DNA of 64,000 nt. Source: Alphaproteobacteria bacterium. Its GTDB lineage: Bacteria > Pseudomonadota > Alphaproteobacteria > RF32 > CAG-239. Numbering within the stretch: the stretch's first letter is position 1; each line of letters begins with the position of its first letter. The stretch spans positions 2,764-66,763 of the forward strand of contig JAZUAM010000011.1 of NCBI GenBank assembly GCA_045637985.1. Reading direction: 5' to 3'. The notes below the pieces were generated by a model. That model was not told the DNA's origin. It did no database searches and was given only the letters and a program-made list of their open reading frames with translations. Position numbers and translations under genes: made by a program. Positions 1,717-61,259 of the stretch are shown here, in pieces.

Positions 1717-3418
1717 CGGTTTTGAGATAAATTTGGATGAAGATAAGCTTGATAAAATGATTAACGAGCAAATGATGCCTGTTAATATGGTTGATGCTGA
1801 TTTCGAAGGATATAAGAATTTGAGCGAGGGAGATAAAAAAGCCCTTAATCATTTAATTAAAGCTGCCAAAATCTTAAATGATGTTGCATTGGAACAAGAC
1901 CACCCTTTAAACAGAAAATTAAAAAAAGCTCTTGAAGAAAATGCCGCAGTTAATCAACATGCCATGAAGGCATTGAAAATTTTTAATTCGCTTAACGGTG
2001 TTTGCGGATTAAACGGATTGGATGCGGAACCGATTGAAATTTTTAAAAATGTTCACGGATATAAGGGACGCAATTATTATCCGGCTGATTTGTCCGTTGA
2101 TGAATTTCATAATATATTGTTCAAAATGTTGAGAGCAGAAAAATACAGCGAAGTGGCAAAAATAGTTTCGAACAGAACAATGGTTCGAAGAAACGGTGAA
2201 GAATTAAAAGCAATTGATTATACGGAATATTTTGCAAAAGAATTTTCTGAAGTTGCTAATGAACTGGAAGTTGCTGCATTTTATTCAACAGATAAAAATT
2301 TTAATGAATTTTTGTCATGGCAAGCGCAAGCTTTAATCCAGAATAATGAAGAAATGGATATGTTGGCTGATAAACACTGGGCTGATTTACAAAATACTCC
2401 GCTTGAATTTACGGTATCACGTGAAAATTATGATGATGAAATGACACCGACTATCTTTGAAAATGATGAATTAAAAACGTTGTTGGAAGAAAAAAATATA
2501 GCGGTAAATCCAAAAGATATGATTGGTGCCAGAGTTGGGATCATAAACCATAAAGGTACAGAGCTTATTTTGACTTTTAAAAAGTTGATGGCAAATTTGG
2601 CAAAATTGATGCCTTATAATGATAAATATGAACAAAAAGTAAATTCCGGTGATGAAGTAAAGCAGACGATGGTTGATGTTGATCTGGTTACATTACAGGG
2701 TGATTATGCTCAGTGTCGCGGCGGTATCACAACAGCTCAAAATTTACCTAATGATGATAAATTGGCCGTTAAAACAGGTGGCGGTCGCAGAAATGTATAT
2801 CACAGACAAGTAAGGATGTCCGGTGATAAAGAGCGAACAAAACGCCTGTTGGATAGTCTTTTGAAAAAAGAGTTTCATCAATATTATGATGAAGAAGCTG
2901 AACATATTTTTGTTATAGGGCATGAAAATGGCCATTCTTTGGGACCTGATAGCAGTTATAAAAATGCGCTGGGGATTTATCATCATATAATTGAGGAAAA
3001 TAAAGCTGATGTGGTATCAATAGCAATGATGCCGGAGTATGTGAAGGCCGGTGTTATTGATGATATTATGCTGAAGAAAATTTATGTAACTTGGATTATG
3101 AGAATGTTGCTTAAAGCAAAACCTCAACAAATACAACCTCACAGAGTTGGAGATTTAATTCATTTTAATTGGTTGATACGATATGGCGTTATAATAATAA
3201 CACCGGAAAATAAGATAACTTTGGATCTGACAAAAATGGAAAGTGCAATGAGTAAAATATTGGATAAAACTATTGAAATCCAATTATCAAAATCTGCTGC
3301 AAAAGCGAAAGAATTTATTGACACTAACTCTGAGTGGAGTACTTTGCACGACTATATAGCTCAAACGTTAATTAAGCTTGGTATTAAGCCATACAAAGAT
3401 ATAAGGACTTATTTATAA
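1703..3418 (+). CDS. Hypothetical protein with a zinc-hydrolase-like HExxH...E signature, possible metallopeptidase
   Basis: 571-aa ORF. It contains GHENGHSLGP followed about 20 residues later by EENKAD, a gluzincin-like HExxH plus downstream Glu arrangement. The family assignment is uncertain. Translationally coupled to sdaA: its stop overlaps the sdaA start. Confidence 0.4.
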   Translation: MTIISGFEINLDEDKLDKMINEQMMPVNMVDADFEGYKNLSEGDKKALNHLIKAAKILNDVALEQDHPLNRKLKKALEENAAVNQHAMKALKIFNSLNGVCGLNGLDAEPIEIFKNVHGYKGRNYYPADLSVDEFHNILFKMLRAEKYSEVAKIVSNRTMVRRNGEELKAIDYTEYFAKEFSEVANELEVAAFYSTDKNFNEFLSWQAQALIQNNEEMDMLADKHWADLQNTPLEFTVSRENYDDEMTPTIFENDELKTLLEEKNIAVNPKDMIGARVGIINHKGTELILTFKKLMANLAKLMPYNDKYEQKVNSGDEVKQTMVDVDLVTLQGDYAQCRGGITTAQNLPNDDKLAVKTGGGRRNVYHRQVRMSGDKERTKRLLDSLLKKEFHQYYDEEAEHIFVIGHENGHSLGPDSSYKNALGIYHHIIEENKADVVSIAMMPEYVKAGVIDDIMLKKIYVTWIMRMLLKAKPQQIQPHRVGDLIHFNWLIRYGVIIITPENKITLDLTKMESAMSKILDKTIEIQLSKSAAKAKEFIDTNSEWSTLHDYIAQTLIKLGIKPYKDIRTYL

Positions 3419-4800
3419 TGCACTATGTGTTGGAAGAAATTTTTGCGATAGGTATCGGCCCTTCAAGTTCACATACCGTTGGCCCTATGAAAGCCGCAAA
3501 AAGATTTGTTGATAATCTTATTGCTGATGACTTACTTGAAAAAGTGCACAGCCTTAAGGTTGATTTGTATGGTTCGTTAGCATTAACCGGTATCGGACAC
3601 GGAACATTGAAAGCTATTGTTTACGGACTTATGGGATTTATTGCAGAAGATGTGGATACCGAAAAACCATATTATGATTCCGTAAAAAGGGACAATATAT
3701 TGCATCTTGCACAACAAAAACCCATACCTTTTTGTTTAGATACAGACATGATCTTAAACAAAGATGTTTTCTTAAAAGAACATTCTAATGGTATGAAATT
3801 TACTGTTTGGGATGAGAATAAGAGAGAATTACTTTCAGAAACATATTTTTCTATCGGTGGCGGAACAATTTTGCGACAAGATGAATTCGGCAACTCATTG
3901 GCTAAGACAGTATATAATGTTCCTTATCAGTTTGATACCTGTACCGAATTACAAGAAATTTGCAAAAAATATGATTTAACTTTTTCTGATGTTGTTTTGC
4001 AAAACGAAGTTTCCATAAAAAAAGAACAGGATGTGTTTGCCTATTTGCATAAAATTCATAAAATGATGAATGATGCTATAGAACGAGGAATGAGAAATCA
4101 CGGTGTTCTGCCGGGCGGGTTGGAAGTTAAAAGAAGAGCTCCGGATATCTATGACAGAGTACGTGAAAAATTTTTGAACAATCAACAAGACGGGTTGGAA
4201 GTTATTGATTGGATAAACCTTTGGGGATTCGCCGCGGCAGAAGAAAATGCGGCCGGAGGCAGAGTAGTTACCGCACCTACAATGGGATCTGCAGGAATTT
4301 TGCCGGCAGTAATAAGATATTTTGAACGTTTTGCTTCTCATACCTCGCCTCTTTCGGTCGAGGAAGGAATTATTAAATTTTTAACCACTGCGGCGGCAAT
4401 TTGTTCTCTTTATCGCTCAAATGCATCTATTTCGGGCGCTGAGGTCGGTTGTCAAGGAGAAATCGGTGTTGCTTGTTCAATGGCTGCGGCAGGATTAGCG
4501 GCGGCAATGGGCGGTACAAATGAGCAAATTGAACAAGCCGCAGAAATTGCAATGGAACATAATCTGGGGCTGACATGTGATCCGGTAAACGGTCTGGTGC
4601 AAATACCTTGTATTGAAAGAAATGCCATGGGGGCTGTAAAAGCTATAAATTCAGCAAGACTGGCTTTGCGAAGTGATGGAAAACATATTGTTTCATTAGA
4701 TAGTGTTATAAAAACAATGTATGACACCGGAAAAGATATGAGTAACAGATATAAAGAAACATCGCTTGGCGGTTTAGCCGTTAATATTGCTAACTGTTAG
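3418..4800 (+). CDS. sdaA: L-serine dehydratase, single-chain iron-sulfur type
   Basis: 460 aa. The N-terminal [17 protein letters not shown] is the hallmark of Fe-S L-serine dehydratases. The C-terminal alpha-domain carries conserved Cys residues. Confidence 0.9.
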
Positions 4801-11145: not shown

Positions 11146-12852
11146 TTATTCCTCTTTTGAAGTTTCTGTCAAATTTTTGGTATCCGCACCATCAAGTAAG
11201 GATATTTCGGCATTATTTTCTTTATCAAAAATAGGATGCTGAGTTCGCTTTTCATCCTTTACTATTTGAGATCCTTGTTTTTCAAAAGATTTTAAATCTT
11301 CTTTTGCAAAAACTTCAACTCTGTTGCGTCCATTTTGTTTTGCTCGATACAATGCCTCATCTGCCGTTTTAACCAACATATCTACATTATCAGAGATATC
11401 GGAAGACGAAACACCGACGGACACTGTGAATCTGACTTCTTGGTTATCATCTGAATATACAACTATGGTAGAAATACTTTGACGCAATCTGTCGGCAACT
11501 TTTGCAGCTTGAATTGCATTAATTTCCGGTAAAAAGATTATAAATTCTTCGCCCCCGTAACGAGCAACAATATCTTTGTCACGCAAAGCTTTTTCTGCTT
11601 TTGATGCAAGCTCAATTAATACCTTATCTCCTGTTTTGTGACCATATGTATCGTTTACGTTTTTAAAGTGATCCGCATCTAACATTAAGACACTGTATGG
11701 AAGCTTTTCATTTTTAGCTTTTATAATTTGCTTTTTGACTTCTTCTTCAAAATAACGACGATTGTAAAGTGATGTCAAAGGATCTCGGGTTGCTTGATTT
11801 TGTAATAACACCTCACGATTTTTTCGAGATGTGATATCTTGAAAAGCGGAATATAAAGCAACATCATAGTTGAAATCTATAATATTTGCAGAAGTTAATA
11901 ACCAAAATGGAGTATCTGTTGTTGATGTTTTTATCAGCACTTCAAAATCTTGAACTTCTTTTTGTTCTTCGATACGTTCCAACAATAATCTTCGGTTATC
12001 CGAATCGGCAAAAAAGTCTTTAAGATGATATCTATCAAATTCATTTGCGTTTACGCCAAAAAGTTTTGATGCATTATCATTTGCCATTATTATTTTATCA
12101 TCACTTAATCTTGATATTATGATAGGAAACGGTGATAATTTGATTATGTCTTCTATACGTTTGTTATACTTTAATATTTCCTGTTCCGCTTTTGCTAAAT
12201 CATCTGAAACAGAATCGCTTTTCATTAATAAAAATGCTAAGGCAAATACTATATATGTTACAGGAACCATATACCATGGAGCATATATTTGGAAAAATTT
12301 TAATGCTATTATAATTATGGTTGATACAGAAATAACAAGTGCCAATCCATAACCGTTATTATTTTTAGATGAAAAACGCGCGGCTAATCCTACCGATAAA
12401 TATAAAAATGCTGCCAACGGGAATATTAACCGCATATTATTGACGATATCACCGGCAGGAATGACTACGGTAAATAATACTACTGCTCCTATTCCCAAAC
12501 CTCCAAGTATCCAAACCGGCAATGATGAACTTCCTTTAGAAGAATTTGATATAAATCGGGATGCTGCTGAAGACATACAAATCATTGAAATTAATAACAA
12601 AACCAATTCAAACATTACATATGTTTCTACTTGTTCGCCTTGTTCATATGCAACAACAGCTTTTGCTTCAACCCAAGAGCCTATAAAATCAAAAACAAAT
12701 GCTGTCATTAAAAAACTTATAGGTGAAAATAAATGGTCTTCTTTTACAGAATATACGGCAGACACCAAAAGACAAACAAATGCAAATATTGTTATTTGGA
12801 TTCCCATCGGGGCTGAAAAAATTTCAAAATTTCCCATTTTTGTTCCTTGCAA
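11146..12852 (-). CDS. Membrane-anchored PAS-GGDEF diguanylate cyclase
   Basis: 568 aa. About 6 N-terminal transmembrane helices, a PAS-like segment and a C-terminal GGDEF domain (RYGGEEF, DTYGHKTGD). Confidence 0.85.
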   Translation of the reverse strand: MQGTKMGNFEIFSAPMGIQITIFAFVCLLVSAVYSVKEDHLFSPISFLMTAFVFDFIGSWVEAKAVVAYEQGEQVETYVMFELVLLLISMICMSSAASRFISNSSKGSSSLPVWILGGLGIGAVVLFTVVIPAGDIVNNMRLIFPLAAFLYLSVGLAARFSSKNNNGYGLALVISVSTIIIIALKFFQIYAPWYMVPVTYIVFALAFLLMKSDSVSDDLAKAEQEILKYNKRIEDIIKLSPFPIIISRLSDDKIIMANDNASKLFGVNANEFDRYHLKDFFADSDNRRLLLERIEEQKEVQDFEVLIKTSTTDTPFWLLTSANIIDFNYDVALYSAFQDITSRKNREVLLQNQATRDPLTSLYNRRYFEEEVKKQIIKAKNEKLPYSVLMLDADHFKNVNDTYGHKTGDKVLIELASKAEKALRDKDIVARYGGEEFIIFLPEINAIQAAKVADRLRQSISTIVVYSDDNQEVRFTVSVGVSSSDISDNVDMLVKTADEALYRAKQNGRNRVEVFAKEDLKSFEKQGSQIVKDEKRTQHPIFDKENNAEISLLDGADTKNLTETSKEE

Positions 12853-34398: not shown

Positions 34399-35205
34399 TT
34401 AGCGGACGACATCTTCCAAATTCTCAAAAACCTTTTTGGCAGTGTGAAGAGCATCATCGGATTTTTGAGGCTTTCCGGCATATGTTAAAGAATATTGCAT
34501 CACCTTAAAACCGAAAGGATTGGTTGTATAATCCATTTTTTCTTCGTCTGTTTTTTCAATATCTTCGTATTTATCAAATTCAAGATACTGTATGCGTAAG
34601 TATGCTCGCCAATTAATTATATCAGGTTCCGGCATATCTTTTGTGGAAGTGTATGTTTTAAATGCCGCCATCCATAAATTATCAGTTAATCGACGTATTT
34701 GCTCTATTTCGACCTTCCGTCTCATTCGCAGACGAATAAAAGTTTTCAGTTGCTCTTTGTCTTGCTTGTTTACAAAATCATAATAATTACGCAGTCCGGA
34801 ATACCAATAAAATTTGGAATTTGTATCCCAACGATAATACAGGTCGGCTGTTGATCTGGGAATTGCATGTCTTGCTCTGACATATTCATCAATATATTTT
34901 TCAGTGAGCAAATCTCTTAGCTTAATTGCTGTTGTTGAAGACTGAACTTGTTCCAAACCATATGATACTTGATTTATTTTATAAAACATGGGAGAAGATG
35001 TTTTTTGTGGCAATAATAAGTAAATTGTCATGGTTAATATTATCGTTAAGCAAAAACTTATTACTGCAAAAATAACCAGTATTCGTGATGTCCAAAGATA
35101 TCGTCTTTCAGGGAATGAATTTATATGAAATCTTTCGGGATAAAGTCCAAGTTTATCAGGACTTTTTTTATCTCGATAGCGGAATACTGTTGAAAAAATA
35201 CTCAT
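34399..35205 (-). CDS. VirB8-family type IV secretion protein (paralog 1)
   Basis: 268 aa. Cytoplasmic N-terminus, ERRYLW, one transmembrane helix, LPQK, FYKIN and a C-terminal NPFGFKVMQY. Same order as VirB8 ERRAW-TM-LPLK...NPLGFxVxxY. Confidence 0.6.
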   Translation of the reverse strand: MSIFSTVFRYRDKKSPDKLGLYPERFHINSFPERRYLWTSRILVIFAVISFCLTIILTMTIYLLLPQKTSSPMFYKINQVSYGLEQVQSSTTAIKLRDLLTEKYIDEYVRARHAIPRSTADLYYRWDTNSKFYWYSGLRNYYDFVNKQDKEQLKTFIRLRMRRKVEIEQIRRLTDNLWMAAFKTYTSTKDMPEPDIINWRAYLRIQYLEFDKYEDIEKTDEEKMDYTTNPFGFKVMQYSLTYAGKPQKSDDALHTAKKVFENLEDVVR

Positions 35206-35217
35206 CCGAAGAGATCC

Positions 35218-35997
35218 TTAATATGCATATTGTTCTGATCGGACTTCTTTTGCCGTATTCAGATAACTTTGGGCATCATCGGGGGTGCCGACATATGATA
35301 AAGCATAATTTGTTATCAAGAAGCCAAACGGATTTTGATCTCTTAGAGATTTATTTTCATATGGAATCGGCGCCATAGTTGCGCGAACATATGCTCGCCA
35401 AATATTAATAATCGGAACTGTTTCACCGGGATAATAGTCCATTGTAATAAATTGAGCCTGCCAAAAACCTTTGGATATGGGCTTAATCCATTCTACCTCT
35501 GCCAAACGAACCAACCCTCGCATTTTGAAAGAGTTAATATTATTATTGATATCATTAGAAACAAAATCTTGATAAACTTTTCTGGATGACATCCAAAACA
35601 ATCTTGACCCTCTGCCCCAACGTGTCATTAACTCATCATAATCTGCTGTGATAGCATGACGCATTAAAATATATTCTTCTATAAAAGCTTCCGCAAGAAG
35701 ATCAATAGCAGCAACCGGTCTGATATGTCTTTCCAGAACATCTAATTGGCTTGAATGCTTAGAATACTGAAATAAAAGAGGATAAGCACTACGCTGAGGC
35801 AACATAAGGTAGATTGCCGATACCAACGTCATATTGAAACATATGCTTAAAGAAGCAAATATAACCAATAATCTTGAACTCCATAAATAGCGTCGCTCAG
35901 GCATTGCACTTGTGTGAATGGCCTCAGGATAAAGCCCCAACTTATCAGGGCTTTTTTTCTCCTTATATTTGAATACGGTCTTTAGTAAATCCAGCAT
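35218..35997 (-). CDS. VirB8-family type IV secretion protein (paralog 2)
   Basis: 259 aa. N-terminal 50 residues strongly similar to paralog 1 (KEKKSPDKLGLYPE...PERRYLWSSRLLVIFA). C-terminal NPFGFLITNYAL. Confidence 0.6.
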   Translation of the reverse strand: MLDLLKTVFKYKEKKSPDKLGLYPEAIHTSAMPERRYLWSSRLLVIFASLSICFNMTLVSAIYLMLPQRSAYPLLFQYSKHSSQLDVLERHIRPVAAIDLLAEAFIEEYILMRHAITADYDELMTRWGRGSRLFWMSSRKVYQDFVSNDINNNINSFKMRGLVRLAEVEWIKPISKGFWQAQFITMDYYPGETVPIINIWRAYVRATMAPIPYENKSLRDQNPFGFLITNYALSYVGTPDDAQSYLNTAKEVRSEQYAY

Positions 35998-40307: not shown

Positions 40308-40590
40308 TATTTTACTCCCATTAAAGTTGTTACAAAATTTTGCATTATCACTTTAATAAAGAGTAAAACAGCTGTCTATCCCGCACAGATTGTAAGAATC
40401 CCCTTTTGCTTTCTATGGGTGATTTTTTCTAAATTCACGATTGTTTTCTTCCGCCAGTTTTATCAATTCTTGCAATAAAAAATCCCTGCATTTGCGAGGA
40501 TATAAAAAACTTGGTATGCGGAAATTGATGAATTGTTGAACTCTATTAAAAGATGAAACAAGAACAATAAATGAGTGGCAATAATTAAAA

Positions 40591-40689: not shown

Positions 40690-41913
40690 TTGCAAATGTA
40701 TATTCAAAGAACTATTGAAAATGCCGTAAAACGAATGAATTCTTCTTTTCCTGTTGTGTTAATTACAGGACCTAGGCAAGTTGGCAAAACAACAGTATTT
40801 AAATGTTGTGACGAGAAACGTAATTATGTTTCTTTGGATACATTGGAAAATCGTAAATTAGCTAAAGAAAATCCCGCCTTATTTTTACAACGTTTTGAAA
40901 CTCCCTTATTGATTGATGAAATCCAATATGCTCCTGAGCTTTTGTCATATATTAAAGCTATTGTAGATGAAAAAAAACAAAAGGGAATGTTTTGGATTAC
41001 AGGTTCTCAACAATTTCATTTAATGCAAAGTGTATCAGAAAGTCTTGCCGGAAGGGTAGGAATTCTTAATTTGGAAGGTTTTTCTTTACCTGAACTGTCA
41101 GGGAAACCTTTTTACGATAAATTTGCTCCTACTCTCGAATGGATTTCAGCAAGAAGTAAGGAAACCCAAAGTTTAGACTTAAAGGAGCTTTATGAGATTA
41201 TTTGGCGAGGTTCTTATCCTGCCTTGAATAATGATGAAAATGTTGACTGGGAAGACTTTTACGGTTCTTATGTTCAGACATATATAGAACGAGATATTCG
41301 TGATTTGACCGATAGTGGTGATGAAATGCAGTTTTTGGAGCTTTTAACAGCATTAGCAGCAAGAAGCGGACAATTGCTAAATTTTTCGGATGTTGCACGA
41401 GATATAGGGAAACCGGTGTCAACAATTCAACGTTGGGTTTCTATCTTACAGACATCCGGAGTGATTTATTTATTGTATCCATTTTCTAAAAATATTAGCA
41501 ATCGGATGACCAAAATGCCTAAAATATATTTTATGGATACAGGGTTAGTTTGCTATTTGACCAAATGGAGTAACCCAGAAACATTGGAAGTTGGTGCTAA
41601 AAGTGGTGAAATCTTGGAGACGTTTGTTGTTGCCGAAATATTAAAAAGCTATCTTCACAATGGAAGAAAGCCCAACATTTCTTTCTATCGTGATAAAGAT
41701 AAAAAAGAGATAGATGTTATTTTGGAAGAAAATGGAAGGGTTTATCCTATTGAAATAAAGAAAAAGACTAATCCGGATAATAAAGATATAAAAAATTTTG
41801 ATGTTTTACAAAAAGCCGGACTTCAAGTGGGAGAAGGAGCGGTTGTCTGTTTAGCTCCTACACATTTACCTTTGAGTGAAAGTGTAAATATTATACCAGT
41901 TTCTTATTTGTGA
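40690..41913 (+). CDS. AAA+ superfamily ATPase with a DUF4143-type C-terminal domain (COG1373-like)
   Basis: 407 aa. Walker A LITGPRQVGKTT, Walker B LLIDEIQ. The C-terminal domain is typical of archaeal-type ATPase/DUF4143 proteins. Confidence 0.65.
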   Translation: MQMYIQRTIENAVKRMNSSFPVVLITGPRQVGKTTVFKCCDEKRNYVSLDTLENRKLAKENPALFLQRFETPLLIDEIQYAPELLSYIKAIVDEKKQKGMFWITGSQQFHLMQSVSESLAGRVGILNLEGFSLPELSGKPFYDKFAPTLEWISARSKETQSLDLKELYEIIWRGSYPALNNDENVDWEDFYGSYVQTYIERDIRDLTDSGDEMQFLELLTALAARSGQLLNFSDVARDIGKPVSTIQRWVSILQTSGVIYLLYPFSKNISNRMTKMPKIYFMDTGLVCYLTKWSNPETLEVGAKSGEILETFVVAEILKSYLHNGRKPNISFYRDKDKKEIDVILEENGRVYPIEIKKKTNPDNKDIKNFDVLQKAGLQVGEGAVVCLAPTHLPLSESVNIIPVSYL

Positions 41914-42004: not shown

Positions 42005-42625
42005 ATGATTGATGCATTAAAAAAATATAATGAGGCTTTTGTACAAAACTATTCTTATGGAAATGAAAATAATGCAGATATTTTCAAATATAAAAATCGT
42101 AATTCCTCTTTGATTTTGACAGCTCCTCATTCTACACGCAGTTTTTGCAATAAAAAGGAAAAATGTGCTGATTTATATACGGGAGCTCTTGTTCAATATT
42201 TAGGTGAGCAAAATAATGTATCAACAATTATTCGAACAAAATTTACACCATACAAAGCTCTTATTTCTGATTGGATTATACAAAATAATACTCACGAACA
42301 TTATTTCTTAGATATTCACGGTTTTAATCAAAATATTGAATATGATATTTGTTTGGGCATAGGCAATTTTGAAGAGGTTAATTATCCATATTTACAGCAA
42401 ATAATTCAAATTACACAAAAATACAACTTACGAAGTGTTGTAAATCACCCTGATTATTGTGGACTAAAAGGATTAACCGGACGATATCAAAAAGTGTTTA
42501 ATTTACCTAACGTAATTCAAATAGAAATAAGGAAAGAACTAAGAGATTTCTTTAATCATTATGATAAGGTTAAAAACATAACGATACCTTTCTTAACTGA
42601 TGTTATCAATCTTTATAAAAAATAA
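42005..42625 (+). CDS. Hypothetical protein, possibly of the N-formylglutamate amidohydrolase-like fold
   Basis: 206 aa. LTAPHSTRSF and FLDIHGF resemble the PHxG / DxHS motifs of the FGase family. Weak. Confidence 0.35.
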   Translation: MIDALKKYNEAFVQNYSYGNENNADIFKYKNRNSSLILTAPHSTRSFCNKKEKCADLYTGALVQYLGEQNNVSTIIRTKFTPYKALISDWIIQNNTHEHYFLDIHGFNQNIEYDICLGIGNFEEVNYPYLQQIIQITQKYNLRSVVNHPDYCGLKGLTGRYQKVFNLPNVIQIEIRKELRDFFNHYDKVKNITIPFLTDVINLYKK

Positions 42626-42688
42626 TTTTTTGTTAAAAATTTAATAATTCAAAATAAAAATCCTCGCAAATGCGAGGAGATTAAAAAC

Positions 42689-42776
42689 TTGGTGCTCTGG
42701 AAAAGACTCGAACTTTCACGAGGATTCCCCCACAAATACCTGAAACTTGCGCGTCTACCAATTCCGCCACCAGAGC
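42689..42776 (-). tRNA. tRNA-Leu(CAG)
   Basis: 88-nt class II tRNA GCTCTGGTGGCGGAATTGGTAGACGCGCAAGTTTCAGGTATTTG...TCCAGAGCACCA. Long variable arm, anticodon CAG. Closely resembles bacterial tRNA-Leu. Confidence 0.85.
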
Positions 42777-56147: not shown

Positions 56148-56222
56148 TGCCGCTATAGCTCAGTGGTAGAGCACACCCTTGGTAAGGGTGGGGTCGTAAG
56201 TCCGATTCTTACTAGCGGCACC
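56148..56222 (+). tRNA. tRNA-Thr(GGU)
   Basis: GCCGCTATAGCTCAGTGGTAGAGCACACCCTTGGTAAGGGTG...TAGCGGCACCA. Cloverleaf with anticodon loop TTGGTAA. T-loop TCCGATT. Confidence 0.85.
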
Positions 56223-56225
56223 ATT

Positions 56226-56254
56226 AAAACAGCCTCCTTTACGGAGGCTTTTTT
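56226..56254 (+). terminator. Rho-independent terminator after tRNA-Thr
   Basis: AGCCTCC-TTTAC-GGAGGCT followed by T6. Confidence 0.65.
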
Positions 56255-56402
56255 AATGGTTTGACGATAGTTAGAAGCGGACTTGTCCGGAGTGGATAGT
56301 TGGTGAAAACGAGTGTTGAGCTTAGCAAATCGCTTAGCGAAATACGAAGTTTGAACCATACGACACGAGGAGGACCCGCGAATATTATGAGCGGGAGTAC
56401 CC

Positions 56403-56421
56403 ATTCTTACTAGCGGCACCA
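56403..56421 (+). repeat. Perfect 19-nt direct repeat of the tRNA-Thr 3' end (att-like), 181 bp downstream of the tRNA
   Basis: ATTCTTACTAGCGGCACCA at 56204-56222 (inside the tRNA) and again at 56403-56421. Both copies are followed by a similar hairpin plus T-run. Confidence 0.7.
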
Positions 56422-57205
56422 TTTGTTAAAACCGTTCCTAAAGGAGCGGTTTTTGCTTTATCAGGGTTGAATCCCATAAAGTCCGATAATTTGTTTCCCA
56501 AAAACAGCATTTTCTCGTCAATTATCGGACTTTTTCATTTTCTTTTTTTGTTTTATCTGTTATAAAAGCAGAAAAGGAGCAATGAATGATAGAATATTTT
56601 GATGTCCTAGATGAGCAAGGTCATAAAATCGGCAAGACCAAAGCACGTTCAGAAGTTCATAGAGATGGTGATTGGCATAAGGCTGTTCATATATGGATAG
56701 TGAATGATAAAGATGAAATTCTTTTACAAAAAAGAAGCCCGAATAAAGACAGTCACCCTAATATGTGGGATATTTCCAGTGCCGGACATTTAACTGCCGG
56801 TGATGATTCTTTATCAGGCGCAATCAGGGAAATAAAAGAAGAATTAGGTGTAGATATATTGCCTTCACAGCTAACTCTTATAGGAACAAGAAATAGTTCA
56901 AGTAAGCCTAAAACAACATTTATTAATAATGAATTTAACGATGTCTATTTACTTCGGTTGTCATTGAATTTAGATAAAATCATACTTCAAGAAAATGAAG
57001 TTTCCGAGGTTAAGTATATTCCTATTGATGAATTTAGGCATATGATAAAGACCGGAGATGAAACTCTTTTAATGCACAATGATGAATTTGAAATGCTTTT
57101 TAAGGCATTAGGTTATAAATTATAAAGATTCCATAAATATGCAGTCTTTTCAATTAACTGCTTATAATCATCATAATTTTCACTCCGATAATCGCAAAGT
57201 ATCGT
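56416..57205 (+). mobile_element. Repeat-bounded single-gene cassette/islet 1 (Nudix cargo), putative integrative remnant at tRNA-Thr
   Basis: The left end GCACCATTTGTTAAAACC-hairpin...AAAGTCCGATAATT is about 80% identical to the left end of the next cassette. The right end TATAATCATCATAATTTTCACTCCGATAATCGCA matches the right end of the next cassette in 29 of 34 positions. Confidence 0.4.
56586..57125 (+). CDS. Nudix hydrolase
   Basis: 179 aa. Nudix box GHLTAGDDSLSGAIREIKEELGV. AAAGGAG Shine-Dalgarno 7 nt upstream. Confidence 0.85.
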   Translation: MIEYFDVLDEQGHKIGKTKARSEVHRDGDWHKAVHIWIVNDKDEILLQKRSPNKDSHPNMWDISSAGHLTAGDDSLSGAIREIKEELGVDILPSQLTLIGTRNSSSKPKTTFINNEFNDVYLLRLSLNLDKIILQENEVSEVKYIPIDEFRHMIKTGDETLLMHNDEFEMLFKALGYKL

Positions 57206-58103
57206 GCACCATTTGACAAAACCGCCTCCAAATAGGCGGTTTTTGTTATATCAGTGTTATATTCCTCAAAGTCCGATAATTGTAAATATATTTACAGGTA
57301 TTAAGGCAATAATTTATGTATGTCGTACTCATCATAACCTTCGTAATAATAGCTGACATCAATGCCTTTCATAAATATTTCACGCTCATCAATTTTATCG
57401 GTCAGGGCATTTTTCAAAAGATGTTTAATTTCAATGTCTTTTATCGGGCTACGTTCCATTGCCGATAGATAATCTTCTTTATCAATATTGTTCCAATCAA
57501 CAACCATTTTCAGTTCTTTTTTAAATATTAGATCAAGCCAAATTCTGGTTGCGCGTCCGTTACCTTCTCTAAAAGGATGCGCAATATTCATCTCTACATA
57601 TTTTTCAACAATTTCATCAAAAGTTGATTGTGGCATTTTCTCTATATTTTTTAATGATTGTTCTAAATACATAACGGGAGCAAAACGAAAATTACCTTTA
57701 GATATATTAACATCACGTATTTGACCGGCAAAGTCATAAATATCTTCAAATAAAAATTTATGTATTTGTTGTAATCCTTTAATTGTTCCAACTTTAAGCT
57801 TATCAATCTTGCCGCTATCAAAGAGCTTAACAGCTTTTTCTTTACTGATTTTTTCTTCTGCCTTATTTAGCTCTGTCTGACTGCTAATGTTTAATTTGTT
57901 TTTTAAAACCATCTCTGTCCCTTTTGAAACATTTTTGATGTATTATATGATATAATTACTAAAATTTACATAATAGAATTACTTTGCTAACAAATTAAAG
58001 AACATCTTTATTTGAACCATCCTGCTCCGGAGACAACTCTAACTTATACCCCAACTTTCTATAATCATCGTAATTTTCAGTTCGATAATTGCATGAGTTA
58101 CGC
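57206..58103 (+). mobile_element. Repeat-bounded single-gene cassette/islet 2 (Fic cargo)
   Basis: Left end GCACCATTTGACAAAACCGCCTCCAAATAGGCGGTTTTTG...AAAGTCCGATAATTG. Right end TATAATCATCGTAATTTTCAGTTCGATAATTGCA, followed by GCACCATTTG at 58104. Confidence 0.4.
57301..57912 (-). CDS. fic: Class III Fic-domain AMP-transferase (NmFic-like, with a C-terminal autoinhibitory helix)
   Basis: 203 aa. Fic motif [13 protein letters not shown]-terminal SYYYEG, the inhibitory S/TxxxEG. Long colinear similarity to the Neisseria meningitidis class III Fic (GLQQIH.FLF...[17 protein letters not shown]; [21 protein letters not shown]). Confidence 0.85.
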
Positions 58104-58210
58104 GCACCATTTGTTAAAATACAAACCTTTGAACATTGAAATATCAGACAAACTTACTCATTGTCAAAATGCTTTTTTTATGCTACAAAACTATGAACAA
58201 GGAGATAAAA

Positions 58211-60026: not shown

Positions 60027-61259
60027 CTATAACTTAATGCCGGTGACATTGTAAAGGTACTTCTTTGTTCTTTCGGCAACTGTCTTCGGATCTGTGCCGG
60101 CAAGCTTGCTGTAACTGTCAAGAGCGCTGATGCGGTCAATGTAGTTATCAGCAATCGATGTCAACACCCATCGTCCCTCCGCGTTACGAATAATTTCAGC
60201 TTCCATAAGTTTCAGCCAAGCTAAAGAAATCCGTCTTTCTTTAGCTACAAACTCGTTTTCAGTAAACGTCTCTTCAAGGACGTTCAATTTGAAAACGTGT
60301 TTGTGTGGCTGAATAGCCGCTGTTCGACGAAACAGAATCGGATCTGTTTCGTATCTGCTGTTCGGTTTTGTTGGTATGGGAATCATATCAACAAAGCCTT
60401 CTTGGCAGATTAAGCGCCGTTTGTAGGCCGAGTACTCTTCATCAATCTCAAAATTAACAGCCGATACGGCAGTATAATCCTGAGCTGGAAGAAAGCTCCA
60501 TTTGTCGCCTAACAGCCTCTGCCACTCGTCCTTCGGCAAGATACTTACGTGCAGTGAGAAAATGTAGTATCCTGATAAATCTTTGGTCAAGAAGATACAT
60601 CTCTCCGGCAAGCTATCGACCTTTTCAGCCTTTTGCAAAAGACTGTACTCGTCAAGTTTGCAGTAATTTACCGCATCTCGCAACGAGATGGACATGATTA
60701 CATACTTACCAGCCTTCTCCAAATCTTCGATGAATGCCGGAATATCCTCGTAGGGGATATGCTCAGCAACATCGTTACAGAAGACAATGTCTGCTCGTTG
60801 ATATAACGGAGCAGAGAGCTCCGGAACACCGATGTCATAACGCTGCACAGTAACATTGCCATACTGAGTTACTTGAGACAGCTCAGCTGTCCTCATAGAG
60901 AGGCGCGCGCGGTCAAACCAAGGCTCGAGCATATTAAGGATATCCTCGTAGCTCTCTCCTTCTTGAAGCATATACTCAATGTCTCGCCCTTGCTCATTGA
61001 TTATCCAGCCTACGACATTGGCGGCATCACTTCGACCACAGCCGTAGTCCGTGATAATCAGAGTATTAAGCGTTAGACCCTGTTTAGATACCAACGCCAT
61101 CACATTAGCCATCATCTCTTTGATGAGATCATTGGCAGATGTCCCGTAAGAAGATGATTCACCATGCACCTCCGTGTAGAGTTCTTCGGTACTCAAACTT
61201 GCTTCGTAAAGAGAGTTTTCGTTGAGAAAGAAAACCTCTTGTTTCTTTTTTTGTTCCAT
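60027..61259 (-). CDS. Class I SAM-dependent methyltransferase with an extra C-terminal domain
   Basis: 410 aa. Motif I ITDYGCGRSD. Acidic motif II and DVAEHIPYED (motif III-like). The C-terminal 200 aa are unknown. Confidence 0.55.
   Translation of the reverse strand: MEQKKKQEVFFLNENSLYEASLSTEELYTEVHGESSSYGTSANDLIKEMMANVMALVSKQGLTLNTLIITDYGCGRSDAANVVGWIINEQGRDIEYMLQEGESYEDILNMLEPWFDRARLSMRTAELSQVTQYGNVTVQRYDIGVPELSAPLYQRADIVFCNDVAEHIPYEDIPAFIEDLEKAGKYVIMSISLRDAVNYCKLDEYSLLQKAEKVDSLPERCIFLTKDLSGYYIFSLHVSILPKDEWQRLLGDKWSFLPAQDYTAVSAVNFEIDEEYSAYKRRLICQEGFVDMIPIPTKPNSRYETDPILFRRTAAIQPHKHVFKLNVLEETFTENEFVAKERRISLAWLKLMEAEIIRNAEGRWVLTSIADNYIDRISALDSYSKLAGTDPKTVAERTKKYLYNVTGIKL

Follow-up and report, generated by a model that had tools for sequence, protein, structure and literature searches.

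What is a Fic gene doing, alone, in a small repeat-bounded cassette behind a tRNA gene? The question is raised by a 64,000-nucleotide stretch of DNA (the window hereafter) from an Alphaproteobacteria bacterium (GTDB lineage RF32; CAG-239; GenBank assembly GCA_045637985.1, contig JAZUAM010000011.1, positions 2,764 to 66,763 of the forward strand). An original prediction had described the open reading frame (ORF) at 57301-57912 on its minus strand as a class III Fic protein carried as cassette cargo. We propose, with a probability of roughly 0.8, that the gene encodes a self-inhibited Fic protein within a recently moved, non-autonomous module of about 0.9 kb, that the boundaries of this module are scars of a large serine recombinase (LSR), and that its cargo has a toxin-like selfish or defence role. 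What is firm in this proposal is which protein the gene encodes, how the surrounding array is organised, where the boundaries come from and that exchange was horizontal.

The Fic protein itself adds nothing new: two of its close relatives have been crystallised, and hundreds more are encoded on plasmids. The setting is the point of note. It is an apparently undescribed, widespread tRNA-Thr hotspot of uncultured gut and rumen Alphaproteobacteria, found on at least 120 gut or rumen contigs in a scan of metagenomes for the boundary motif, where very small modules of toxin or defence type build up and pass from one species to another. The hotspot is of the same kind as the ssrA islands of Dehalococcoides, miniaturised, with a recombinase gene that spans the attachment site. 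Such a locus could be consulted as a natural collection of genes for defence and toxins, and it is a source of a serine integrase whose tRNA target is short and well defined.

The Fic protein and its relatives

The Fic gene starts with ATG and has 203 codons plus a stop. Its product matches the Pfam Fic model (5.6e-14, 53 bits against a cutoff of 24) and the NCBIfam equivalog NF046029 ('ProtAdlyltaseNmFic', 'protein adenylyltransferase Fic') with 322.5 bits against a cutoff of 230, over profile positions 2-177 of 177. As a single-domain protein of 203 amino acids (aa), it falls within the range of about 190-210 aa and above the equivalog cutoff. Among solved structures the best match is Enterococcus faecalis Fic (EfFic, 5nv5; E 6.5e-98, 72.9% identity over 199 aa), with the chains of Neisseria meningitidis Fic (NmFic, 2g03 and 3s6a) second at E about 1e-74 and 62.5% identity over 176 aa. 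Neither alignment has gaps; both are collinear and extend through the C-terminal SYYYEG helix. The core motif HxFx(D/E)GNGRxxR with its catalytic His occupies residues 112-123, and the C-terminal (S/T)xxxE(G/N) motif appears as SYYYEG at 187-192, aligned column for column with 5nv5 and 2g03. Across 16 close homologs both motifs are unchanged, including the catalytic residues H112, E116, R120 and R123 and the inhibitory residues S187, E191 and G192. With similarity this strong and no catalytic or inhibitory residue missing, membership of class III is secure on every criterion that a sequence can address.

The window protein shares with EfFic (5nv5, 6ep0) and NmFic (2g03, 3s6a) a single Fic domain of about 200 aa and a SYYYEG helix with its Glu. 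The core motif of EfFic is identical, with the partner Arg at R122 there and R123 here, and the Tyr that NmFic auto-AMPylates has an equivalent. The differences lie in the host, an uncultured gut- or rumen-type alphaproteobacterium, in the setting, a tRNA-Thr module array instead of a plasmid or chromosome locus, and in that the window copy is known from its sequence alone. The original prediction thus held as regards the class III (NmFic-like) assignment, the canonical Fic motif and the SYYYEG helix; alignment to NmFic and class III proteins retained the motif His and Arg. Its description of the protein as colinear with NmFic is also correct, yet E. faecalis Fic is the closer relative.

Class III Fic proteins are by definition encoded without a separate antitoxin gene. 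The window ORF list holds no credible antitoxin ORF on either side of the Fic gene, in agreement with the earlier claim of a missing partner; the open frames beside it are only antisense overlaps or start-less relics of a recombinase tail. The missing antitoxin gene is therefore expected for class III and no surprise. Assignment to class I (FicT/FicA, as in VbhT/VbhA and E. coli FicT/FicA) was rejected, with scores far under the family cutoffs (82 against 181; 62 against 800) and no antitoxin gene. Class I proteins have the same catalytic core and match weakly by model, whereas the window Fic has its inhibitory helix in cis at the C-terminus and no small antitoxin ORF upstream. A peptide encoded in the flanking repeats was also considered as a small antitoxin and discarded: it has no start codon, is frameshifted in the right-hand repeat (R3), and proved to be a recombinase tail.

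By homology, His112 and the HxFxEGNGRxxR loop would transfer AMP from ATP onto a target hydroxyl. Glu191 of the last helix would occupy the gamma-phosphate site, salt-bridged to Arg123, and so hold the enzyme in a low-activity or deAMPylating state. In EfFic, Glu190 forms a salt bridge with Arg122, the E190G substitution increases AMPylation, and this Glu also supports deAMPylation in a Ca2+-dependent manner (PMC6408439). The mechanism of the window Fic is probably that of these homologs. Self-inhibition by Glu191 would mean that no antitoxin gene is needed.

Relatives of this protein are abundant. A protein search gave at least 8000 matches, of which the best 120 are all at least 85% identical and come mostly from metagenome-assembled genomes (MAGs) labelled 'Alphaproteobacteria bacterium'. 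Among species-representative genomes, relatives with 68-92% identity occur in Firmicutes, Proteobacteria, Leptospiraceae, Endomicrobia and Methanimicrococcus archaea. Further, 966 plasmid records carry a Fic copy at 60-80% identity, mostly from Enterococcus, Lactococcus and Bacillus and annotated 'protein adenylyltransferase Fic', as do three phage-like records. The Fic gene is a familiar and highly mobile accessory gene. In three more distant Rickettsiales-type MAGs (loci L021, L025 and L045), a Fic homolog and a tRNA-Ser gene are convergent, with 0.2-0.7 kb between the homolog and the tRNA 3′ end, which hints that tRNA-linked carriage of Fic may be more general.

We expect the gene to act as a toxin-like selfish or defence-island gene, arresting growth by AMPylation of a target that is plausibly GyrB or ParE. 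The protein would then be a self-restrained toxin that serves either to stabilise the module or to defend the cell. A narrower version of this idea is possible, though on balance not likely: a single-gene abortive-infection system that AMPylates a host or phage target upon infection, with the array as a defence-island hotspot. It would account for the full-length match to the PADLOC model PDLC04842 of the PDC-S04 system (E 3.5e-107, residues 1-200 against a 202-position profile), and for the defence-like cargo of the same arrays, including NERD proteins, restriction-modification methyltransferases, Fic_N-Fic and GIY-YIG proteins. The class II protein SoFic is, moreover, a validated single-protein defence (PMC12249575). 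PDC systems, however, are computational candidates picked by guilt-by-embedding and are untested (bioRxiv 10.1101/2024.01.29.577857), so a match to PDC-S04 is a match to a candidate only. The one native-host trial of a PDC-S04 gene found that it conferred no defence against phage (PMC12409345), a result that also bears on the defence role in our own proposal. Nor does the sequence hold anything that separates defence from plain addiction.

A module array behind tRNA-Thr

The Fic module spans about 57212-58109, has Fic as its sole cargo, and is one of three units that follow directly behind a tRNA-Thr(GGU) gene at 56149-56223 on the plus strand (ARAGORN; Rfam tRNA, 70 bits). This tRNA gene anchors the array and supplies the B half-site; its 3′ end, ...CTTACTAGCGGCACCA, includes the attachment core. 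The sequence GCACCATTTGWYAAAA occurs three times in the window (56416, 57206 and 58104), against 0.43 expected by chance. The left boundary of the module, unit R2 (57141-57220, plus strand), scores 62 bits in nhmmer with a hidden Markov model (HMM) of the unit. Its minus strand reads KWCTILCDYRSENYDDYKQL, its core GCACCA lies at 57206-57211, and tblastn with the LSR of locus L104 matches it at E 1.4e-7. The right boundary, R3 (58036-58119, plus strand; nhmmer 67 bits, tblastn E 0.003), reads CNYRTENYDDYRKLGYKLEL on the minus strand, with the core GCACCA at 58104-58109 followed by TTTGTTAAAA.

R2 and R3 share about 75 nt upstream of GCACCA, with a 34-nt segment common to 57163-57196 and 58060-58093 where none is expected by chance, and in both the GCACCA+TT of the tRNA 3′ end recurs. 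On the minus strand the shared segment reads as a peptide-like KWCxILCxYRTENYDDYKxL... without a start codon. Both units are remnants of the 3′ coding tail of an LSR, and recombinase-tail relics in the window lie at 57146-57214, 58034-58093 and 56285-56377. The earlier description of a repeat-bounded cassette with Fic as cargo is borne out, both by flanking repeats that exceed chance and by comparative data. Reading the repeats as degenerate pieces of tRNA or tmRNA was rejected, as ARAGORN and Rfam give only the one tRNA-Thr and the repeats have no acceptor 5′ strand.

The source of the boundaries is preserved in relatives. Some loci carry an LSR with Resolvase, Recombinase and Zn_ribbon_recom domains (Pfam), and about 35 loci have a recombinase gene or a fragment of one. 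Intact LSRs are present in L166 (550 aa, 1905-3563 in oriented coordinates), L138 (543 aa, 836-2473, likewise oriented) and also L096. The ORFs of L166 and L138 read '...KTPEIDKWCAILC(T/S)YRTE.Y(E/D)EFK.L...' across GCACCA into the unit. In L112 (155-934, oriented coordinates) and L100 the LSR abuts tRNA-Thr and ends '...KWCR', its stop codon coming from the tRNA acceptor stem. Where the LSR precedes a unit, its tail is conserved and about 35 aa long. The 'peptide' of the units is therefore the natural C-terminal tail of the LSR, whose ORF spans its own attachment core, and the C-terminus of the protein depends on the recombination state. A census of junctions at the core GCACCA-TTT(G/A)T counted 44 B/B′, 5-8 B/P′, 104 P/B′ and 11 P/P′, so that all four combinations expected for attB, attL, attR and attP are present.

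The attachment core GCACCA-TTT(G/A)T falls within the 3′ terminus of the LSR gene itself and matches the 3′ end of the tRNA. We suggest that LSR-carrying elements integrate at this end of tRNA-Thr. The array would then have been built by successive integrations with loss of the LSR gene, or by mobilisation in trans of modules that lack it. A more ambitious interpretation, which we regard as speculative and rather unlikely, is an integron-like capture platform run by the LSR. Here, single-gene modules of the attR type (unit/terminator) would be excised and re-inserted in trans, the ~165-nt element behind the tRNA gene would serve as a second landing site, and Fic would be one of more than 160 cargoes of toxin or defence type that are shuffled in gut and rumen Alphaproteobacteria. 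The LSR would regulate itself, being full-length with its ~35-aa tail in the P/P′ (attP-like) state and truncated at '...KWCR' once integrated.

Searching with the unit HMM yielded 205 units across 133 loci, where one to four of them form an array at spacings of 0.7-2.7 kb. In 47 of the 47 loci that include this tRNA-Thr gene, it lies upstream of the units and is co-oriented with them, and the window is no different. The boundary motif had no match in a viral contig collection. Between units lie 301 ORFs in 162 cargo families, among them a lipoprotein gene and an ITPase-like gene (18 loci each). Fic is cargo in 13 loci and is always antisense to the tRNA. Other cargo includes NERD/zinc-ribbon proteins, Fic_N-Fic, Bro-N, an APH-type kinase, GIY-YIG proteins and DNA methyltransferases (restriction-modification genes). 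Bro-N proteins and a class II, SoFic-like Fic_N-Fic protein of 385 aa are carried in L200, L014 and others, so that the tRNA-Thr hotspot bears two or more unrelated types of Fic.

The closest parallel is with the ssrA islands of Dehalococcoides, which lie in tandem directly downstream of a tRNA-like gene and are bounded by direct repeats of its 3′ end (McMurdie et al. 2011, PMC3146451). A serine recombinase of about 540 aa is encoded there in reverse orientation beside attL. Islands without an integration module are numerous and are read as cis-mobilizable elements gathered by accretion (PMC3146451). The tRNA-Thr array likewise lies directly downstream of, and co-oriented with, its target gene, and its boundaries repeat the 3′ end of that gene (19-21 nt in R1, the junction nearest the tRNA; GCACCA+TT in R2 and R3). 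A reverse-strand serine recombinase next to attL is found in relatives (L112, L100), and the window retains only relics of its tail. Gain and loss of modules between close strains also occurs (L006, L007 and L009). Unlike the ssrA islands, the array targets tRNA-Thr(GGU), its modules measure 0.7-2.7 kb and often hold one gene, and its repeat incorporates part of the recombinase gene itself, about 75 nt that code for the C-terminal tail. A second, small serine recombinase or other integration-module genes were not seen in the tRNA-Thr arrays, which were not searched systematically for them. The array is one more instance of an already described type of tandem island array, perhaps slightly modified, and the protein it carries is ordinary.

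Between the tRNA gene and the Fic module lie several further features. Directly after the tRNA gene comes a 'mini element' (56224-56423, plus strand), comprising a terminator hairpin (56231-56249) and then a conserved segment of about 165 nt (56256-56423). Its final stretch (56403-56423) duplicates the 19-21 nt with which tRNA-Thr ends, forming a second attB-like site, R1. Homologs of the mini element occur in at least 16 loci, often abutting the 3′ end of a recombinase gene or following a unit. RNAalifold on eight copies gave 48 pairs, 11 of them with compensatory double changes, and Rfam has no family for the ~165-nt segment, which may act as a structured RNA or as an additional landing site. 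Junction R1 itself (B*/B′; 56416-56491, plus strand) consists of GCACCATTTGTTAAAA, a terminator hairpin at 56428-56453, and then AAAGTCCGATAATT. It forms the first copy of a 76-nt repeat, 56416-56491 and 57206-57281, with 78% identity. A perfect 14-bp inverted repeat, AAAGTCCGATAATT / AATTATCGGACTTT at 56478-56491 and 56520-56533, derives from the invariant unit motif and sits upstream of a NUDIX gene, with a similar arrangement in L007. That gene (NUDIX hydrolase, 56586-57125, plus strand; Pfam NUDIX 4.8e-18) is the cargo of the neighbouring module, and L007 has a different NUDIX gene in the same place. In L007, too, the region 12560-12700 just upstream of the intact tRNA-Thr holds a tRNA-Thr-like 5′ half (TGCCGCTATAGCTCAGTGGTAGCGC) about 100 nt from an anticodon-arm-like piece, as a disrupted or split copy of the tRNA.

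Immediately downstream of the Fic stop lies a degenerate partial unit (57250-57298, plus strand), which aligns pairwise with the partial unit that follows Fic in L007 and with R2 and R3. Its core-proximal part holds AAAGTCCGATAATT and the perfect 16-bp palindrome TGTAAATATATTTACA (57281-57296), five bases past the Fic stop codon. The original prediction had pointed out this palindrome, and its position just past the stop stands. Such palindromes are not above chance: two perfect 16-mers are observed in the AT-rich window against a mean of 2.3 in Markov-1 simulations. Relatives retain a 5+5 inverted repeat at the site with a compensatory change (TGTAA..TTACA against CGCAA..TTGCG). As RNA the palindrome folds at -2.4 kcal/mol (z -0.6), and it was rejected as the Fic terminator for being too weak and at chance frequency. 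A better candidate is the GC-rich hairpin at 57218-57243, flanked by an A-run and a T-run, which was found by a terminator scan, has a fold z-score of -3.8 on the plus strand and also forms on the minus strand. It is likely a bidirectional terminator for the NUDIX (plus) and Fic (minus) genes.

Exchange of the module between genomes

The loci compared here are from relatives with 89-98% identity; exact-sequence searches with the window Fic and with the 100%-identical sequence P0001 returned no contig. By blastn, the block 57257/57268-58119, which takes in Fic, its upstream region and the units, is 89-92% identical to L006, L007 and L009, whereas the flanking murA and ODP-flavodoxin genes are 72-76% identical. 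Synonymous divergence (dS) of Fic is 0.26-0.30 against L006 and L007, and both flanking genes are saturated, with a proportion of synonymous differences (pS) of about 0.8. In each of these three comparisons, homology on the right breaks off exactly at 58119, where the R3 core ends. The 5′ region of Fic (57913-58035, minus strand), containing the ribosome-binding site and a presumed promoter, is about 90% identical in the same loci and travels with the gene; a consensus scan called no convincing promoter, so that this element is only presumed.

Arrays also change between near-identical strains. L006 and L007 match at 99% identity for 10.6 kb as far as the Fic stop, beyond which L007 carries an additional 1.8 kb, made up of two modules, ahead of the tRNA gene; L009 shows a third state. 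Taking the three together, they are 98-99% identical up to the Fic stop and then carry zero modules, two modules or a different set before the tRNA gene. As Fic dS is low beside saturated flanks, and modules are gained or lost in near-identical strains, we conclude that the Fic module was recently exchanged between diverged host genomes and that the array turns over within species.

These data also dispose largely of the idea that Fic is an ordinary, vertically inherited chromosomal gene flanked by incidental relics, which we consider very unlikely. In its favour, Fic occupies the same tRNA-Thr/murA neighbourhood in most related species, and against the distant relatives L012, L015 and L018 its dS nears that of murA. 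Against it stand a block that is conserved together with its non-coding flanks between saturated neighbours, and breakpoints that fall at unit cores. Further, Fic stands in unrelated contexts without units in L002-L005 and occurs in many phyla.

Beyond R3, the segment from 58.1 to 62.3 kb (a glycosyltransferase, EamA, a 410-aa ORF and LysR) may be older, decayed array content. This region is absent between Fic and the ODP-flavodoxin gene in L006 and L007. Neither inspection by eye nor the unit HMM found further units between 58120 and 62726. The 410-aa ORF (60027-61259, minus strand) has no Pfam or PADLOC match, and a module array in L001 holds a 410-aa ORF that we assume to be its homolog.

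Weighing the proposal, and the rest of the window

Several further observations weigh against the explanation we prefer. None of the 58 window ORFs of at least 100 aa encodes a recombinase, integrase or transposase; any current mobility of the module is thus putative, and it may be fixed. Homologous recombination across conserved flanks, instead of site-specific recombination, could have moved it. The inhibitory helix is placed by homology with the EfFic structure (73% identity), as an AlphaFold2 model, built on a shallow 16-sequence alignment of homologs all at least 85% identical, reached a predicted local distance difference test (pLDDT) score of only 46.6 and was discarded as unusable. Both the target and the toxicity of this Fic subgroup are putative. 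NmFic AMPylates E. coli gyrase under control of tetramerisation and auto-AMPylation, and EfFic is a bifunctional AMPylase/deAMPylase without a known physiological target (PMC6408439). Targeting of gyrase by the window Fic would hold by analogy only, because the protein is nearer to EfFic than to NmFic.

The original prediction had also raised persistence or host manipulation in a reduced genome. The protein of such a symbiont would be exported (e.g. by type IV secretion) to AMPylate host proteins, or would drive persistence through GyrB. The chances of this are slim indeed, and the suggestions of host manipulation and of a reduced genome are unsupported. It can call on the gyrase activity of NmFic, on the Bartonella Bep effectors, which are Fic proteins matched in the PDB search, and on VirB8 paralogs in the window. 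Yet the window protein is a bare 203-aa Fic domain without a BID or secretion domain, and its Bep matches, at E 1e-8 or worse, cover the core motif only. Near-identical proteins occur in free-living Firmicutes, their plasmids and methanogenic archaea. In addition, the window encodes a flagellar/type III secretion-type ATPase, a GGDEF protein, NrdD and VirB8 proteins, and does not look like the genome of an obligate endosymbiont or reduced symbiont. An integron cassette captured at attC by IntI has a negligible probability: the array does resemble one in its small, single-gene, repeat-bounded units beside a fixed site, but no IntI or other tyrosine integrase is found among the 58 window ORFs or in the arrays, cargo faces both ways with terminator hairpins and presumably its own promoters, and the boundaries are the sequence-conserved 3′ end of a gene for another class of recombinase, not structure-only attC hairpins.

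Elsewhere in the window, two adjacent VirB8-family paralogs (type IV secretion) lie at 34399-35205 and 35218-35997 on the minus strand. In L002, a TrbI/VirB10-like gene and a VirB11-like ATPase gene lie a few kb from Fic. The window also contains a second tRNA-linked islet, bounded by a 51-nt repeat at 40465-40515 and 42643-42693 and adjoining tRNA-Leu(CAG) at 42690-42776; the repeat consists of a terminator hairpin and the last bases of tRNA-Leu. Its two ORFs, 40690-41913 and 42005-42625, encode an AAA_14/DUF4143 ATPase and a 206-aa protein without a family match. The ATPase matches the PADLOC candidate PDC-S01 at E 2.4e-113.

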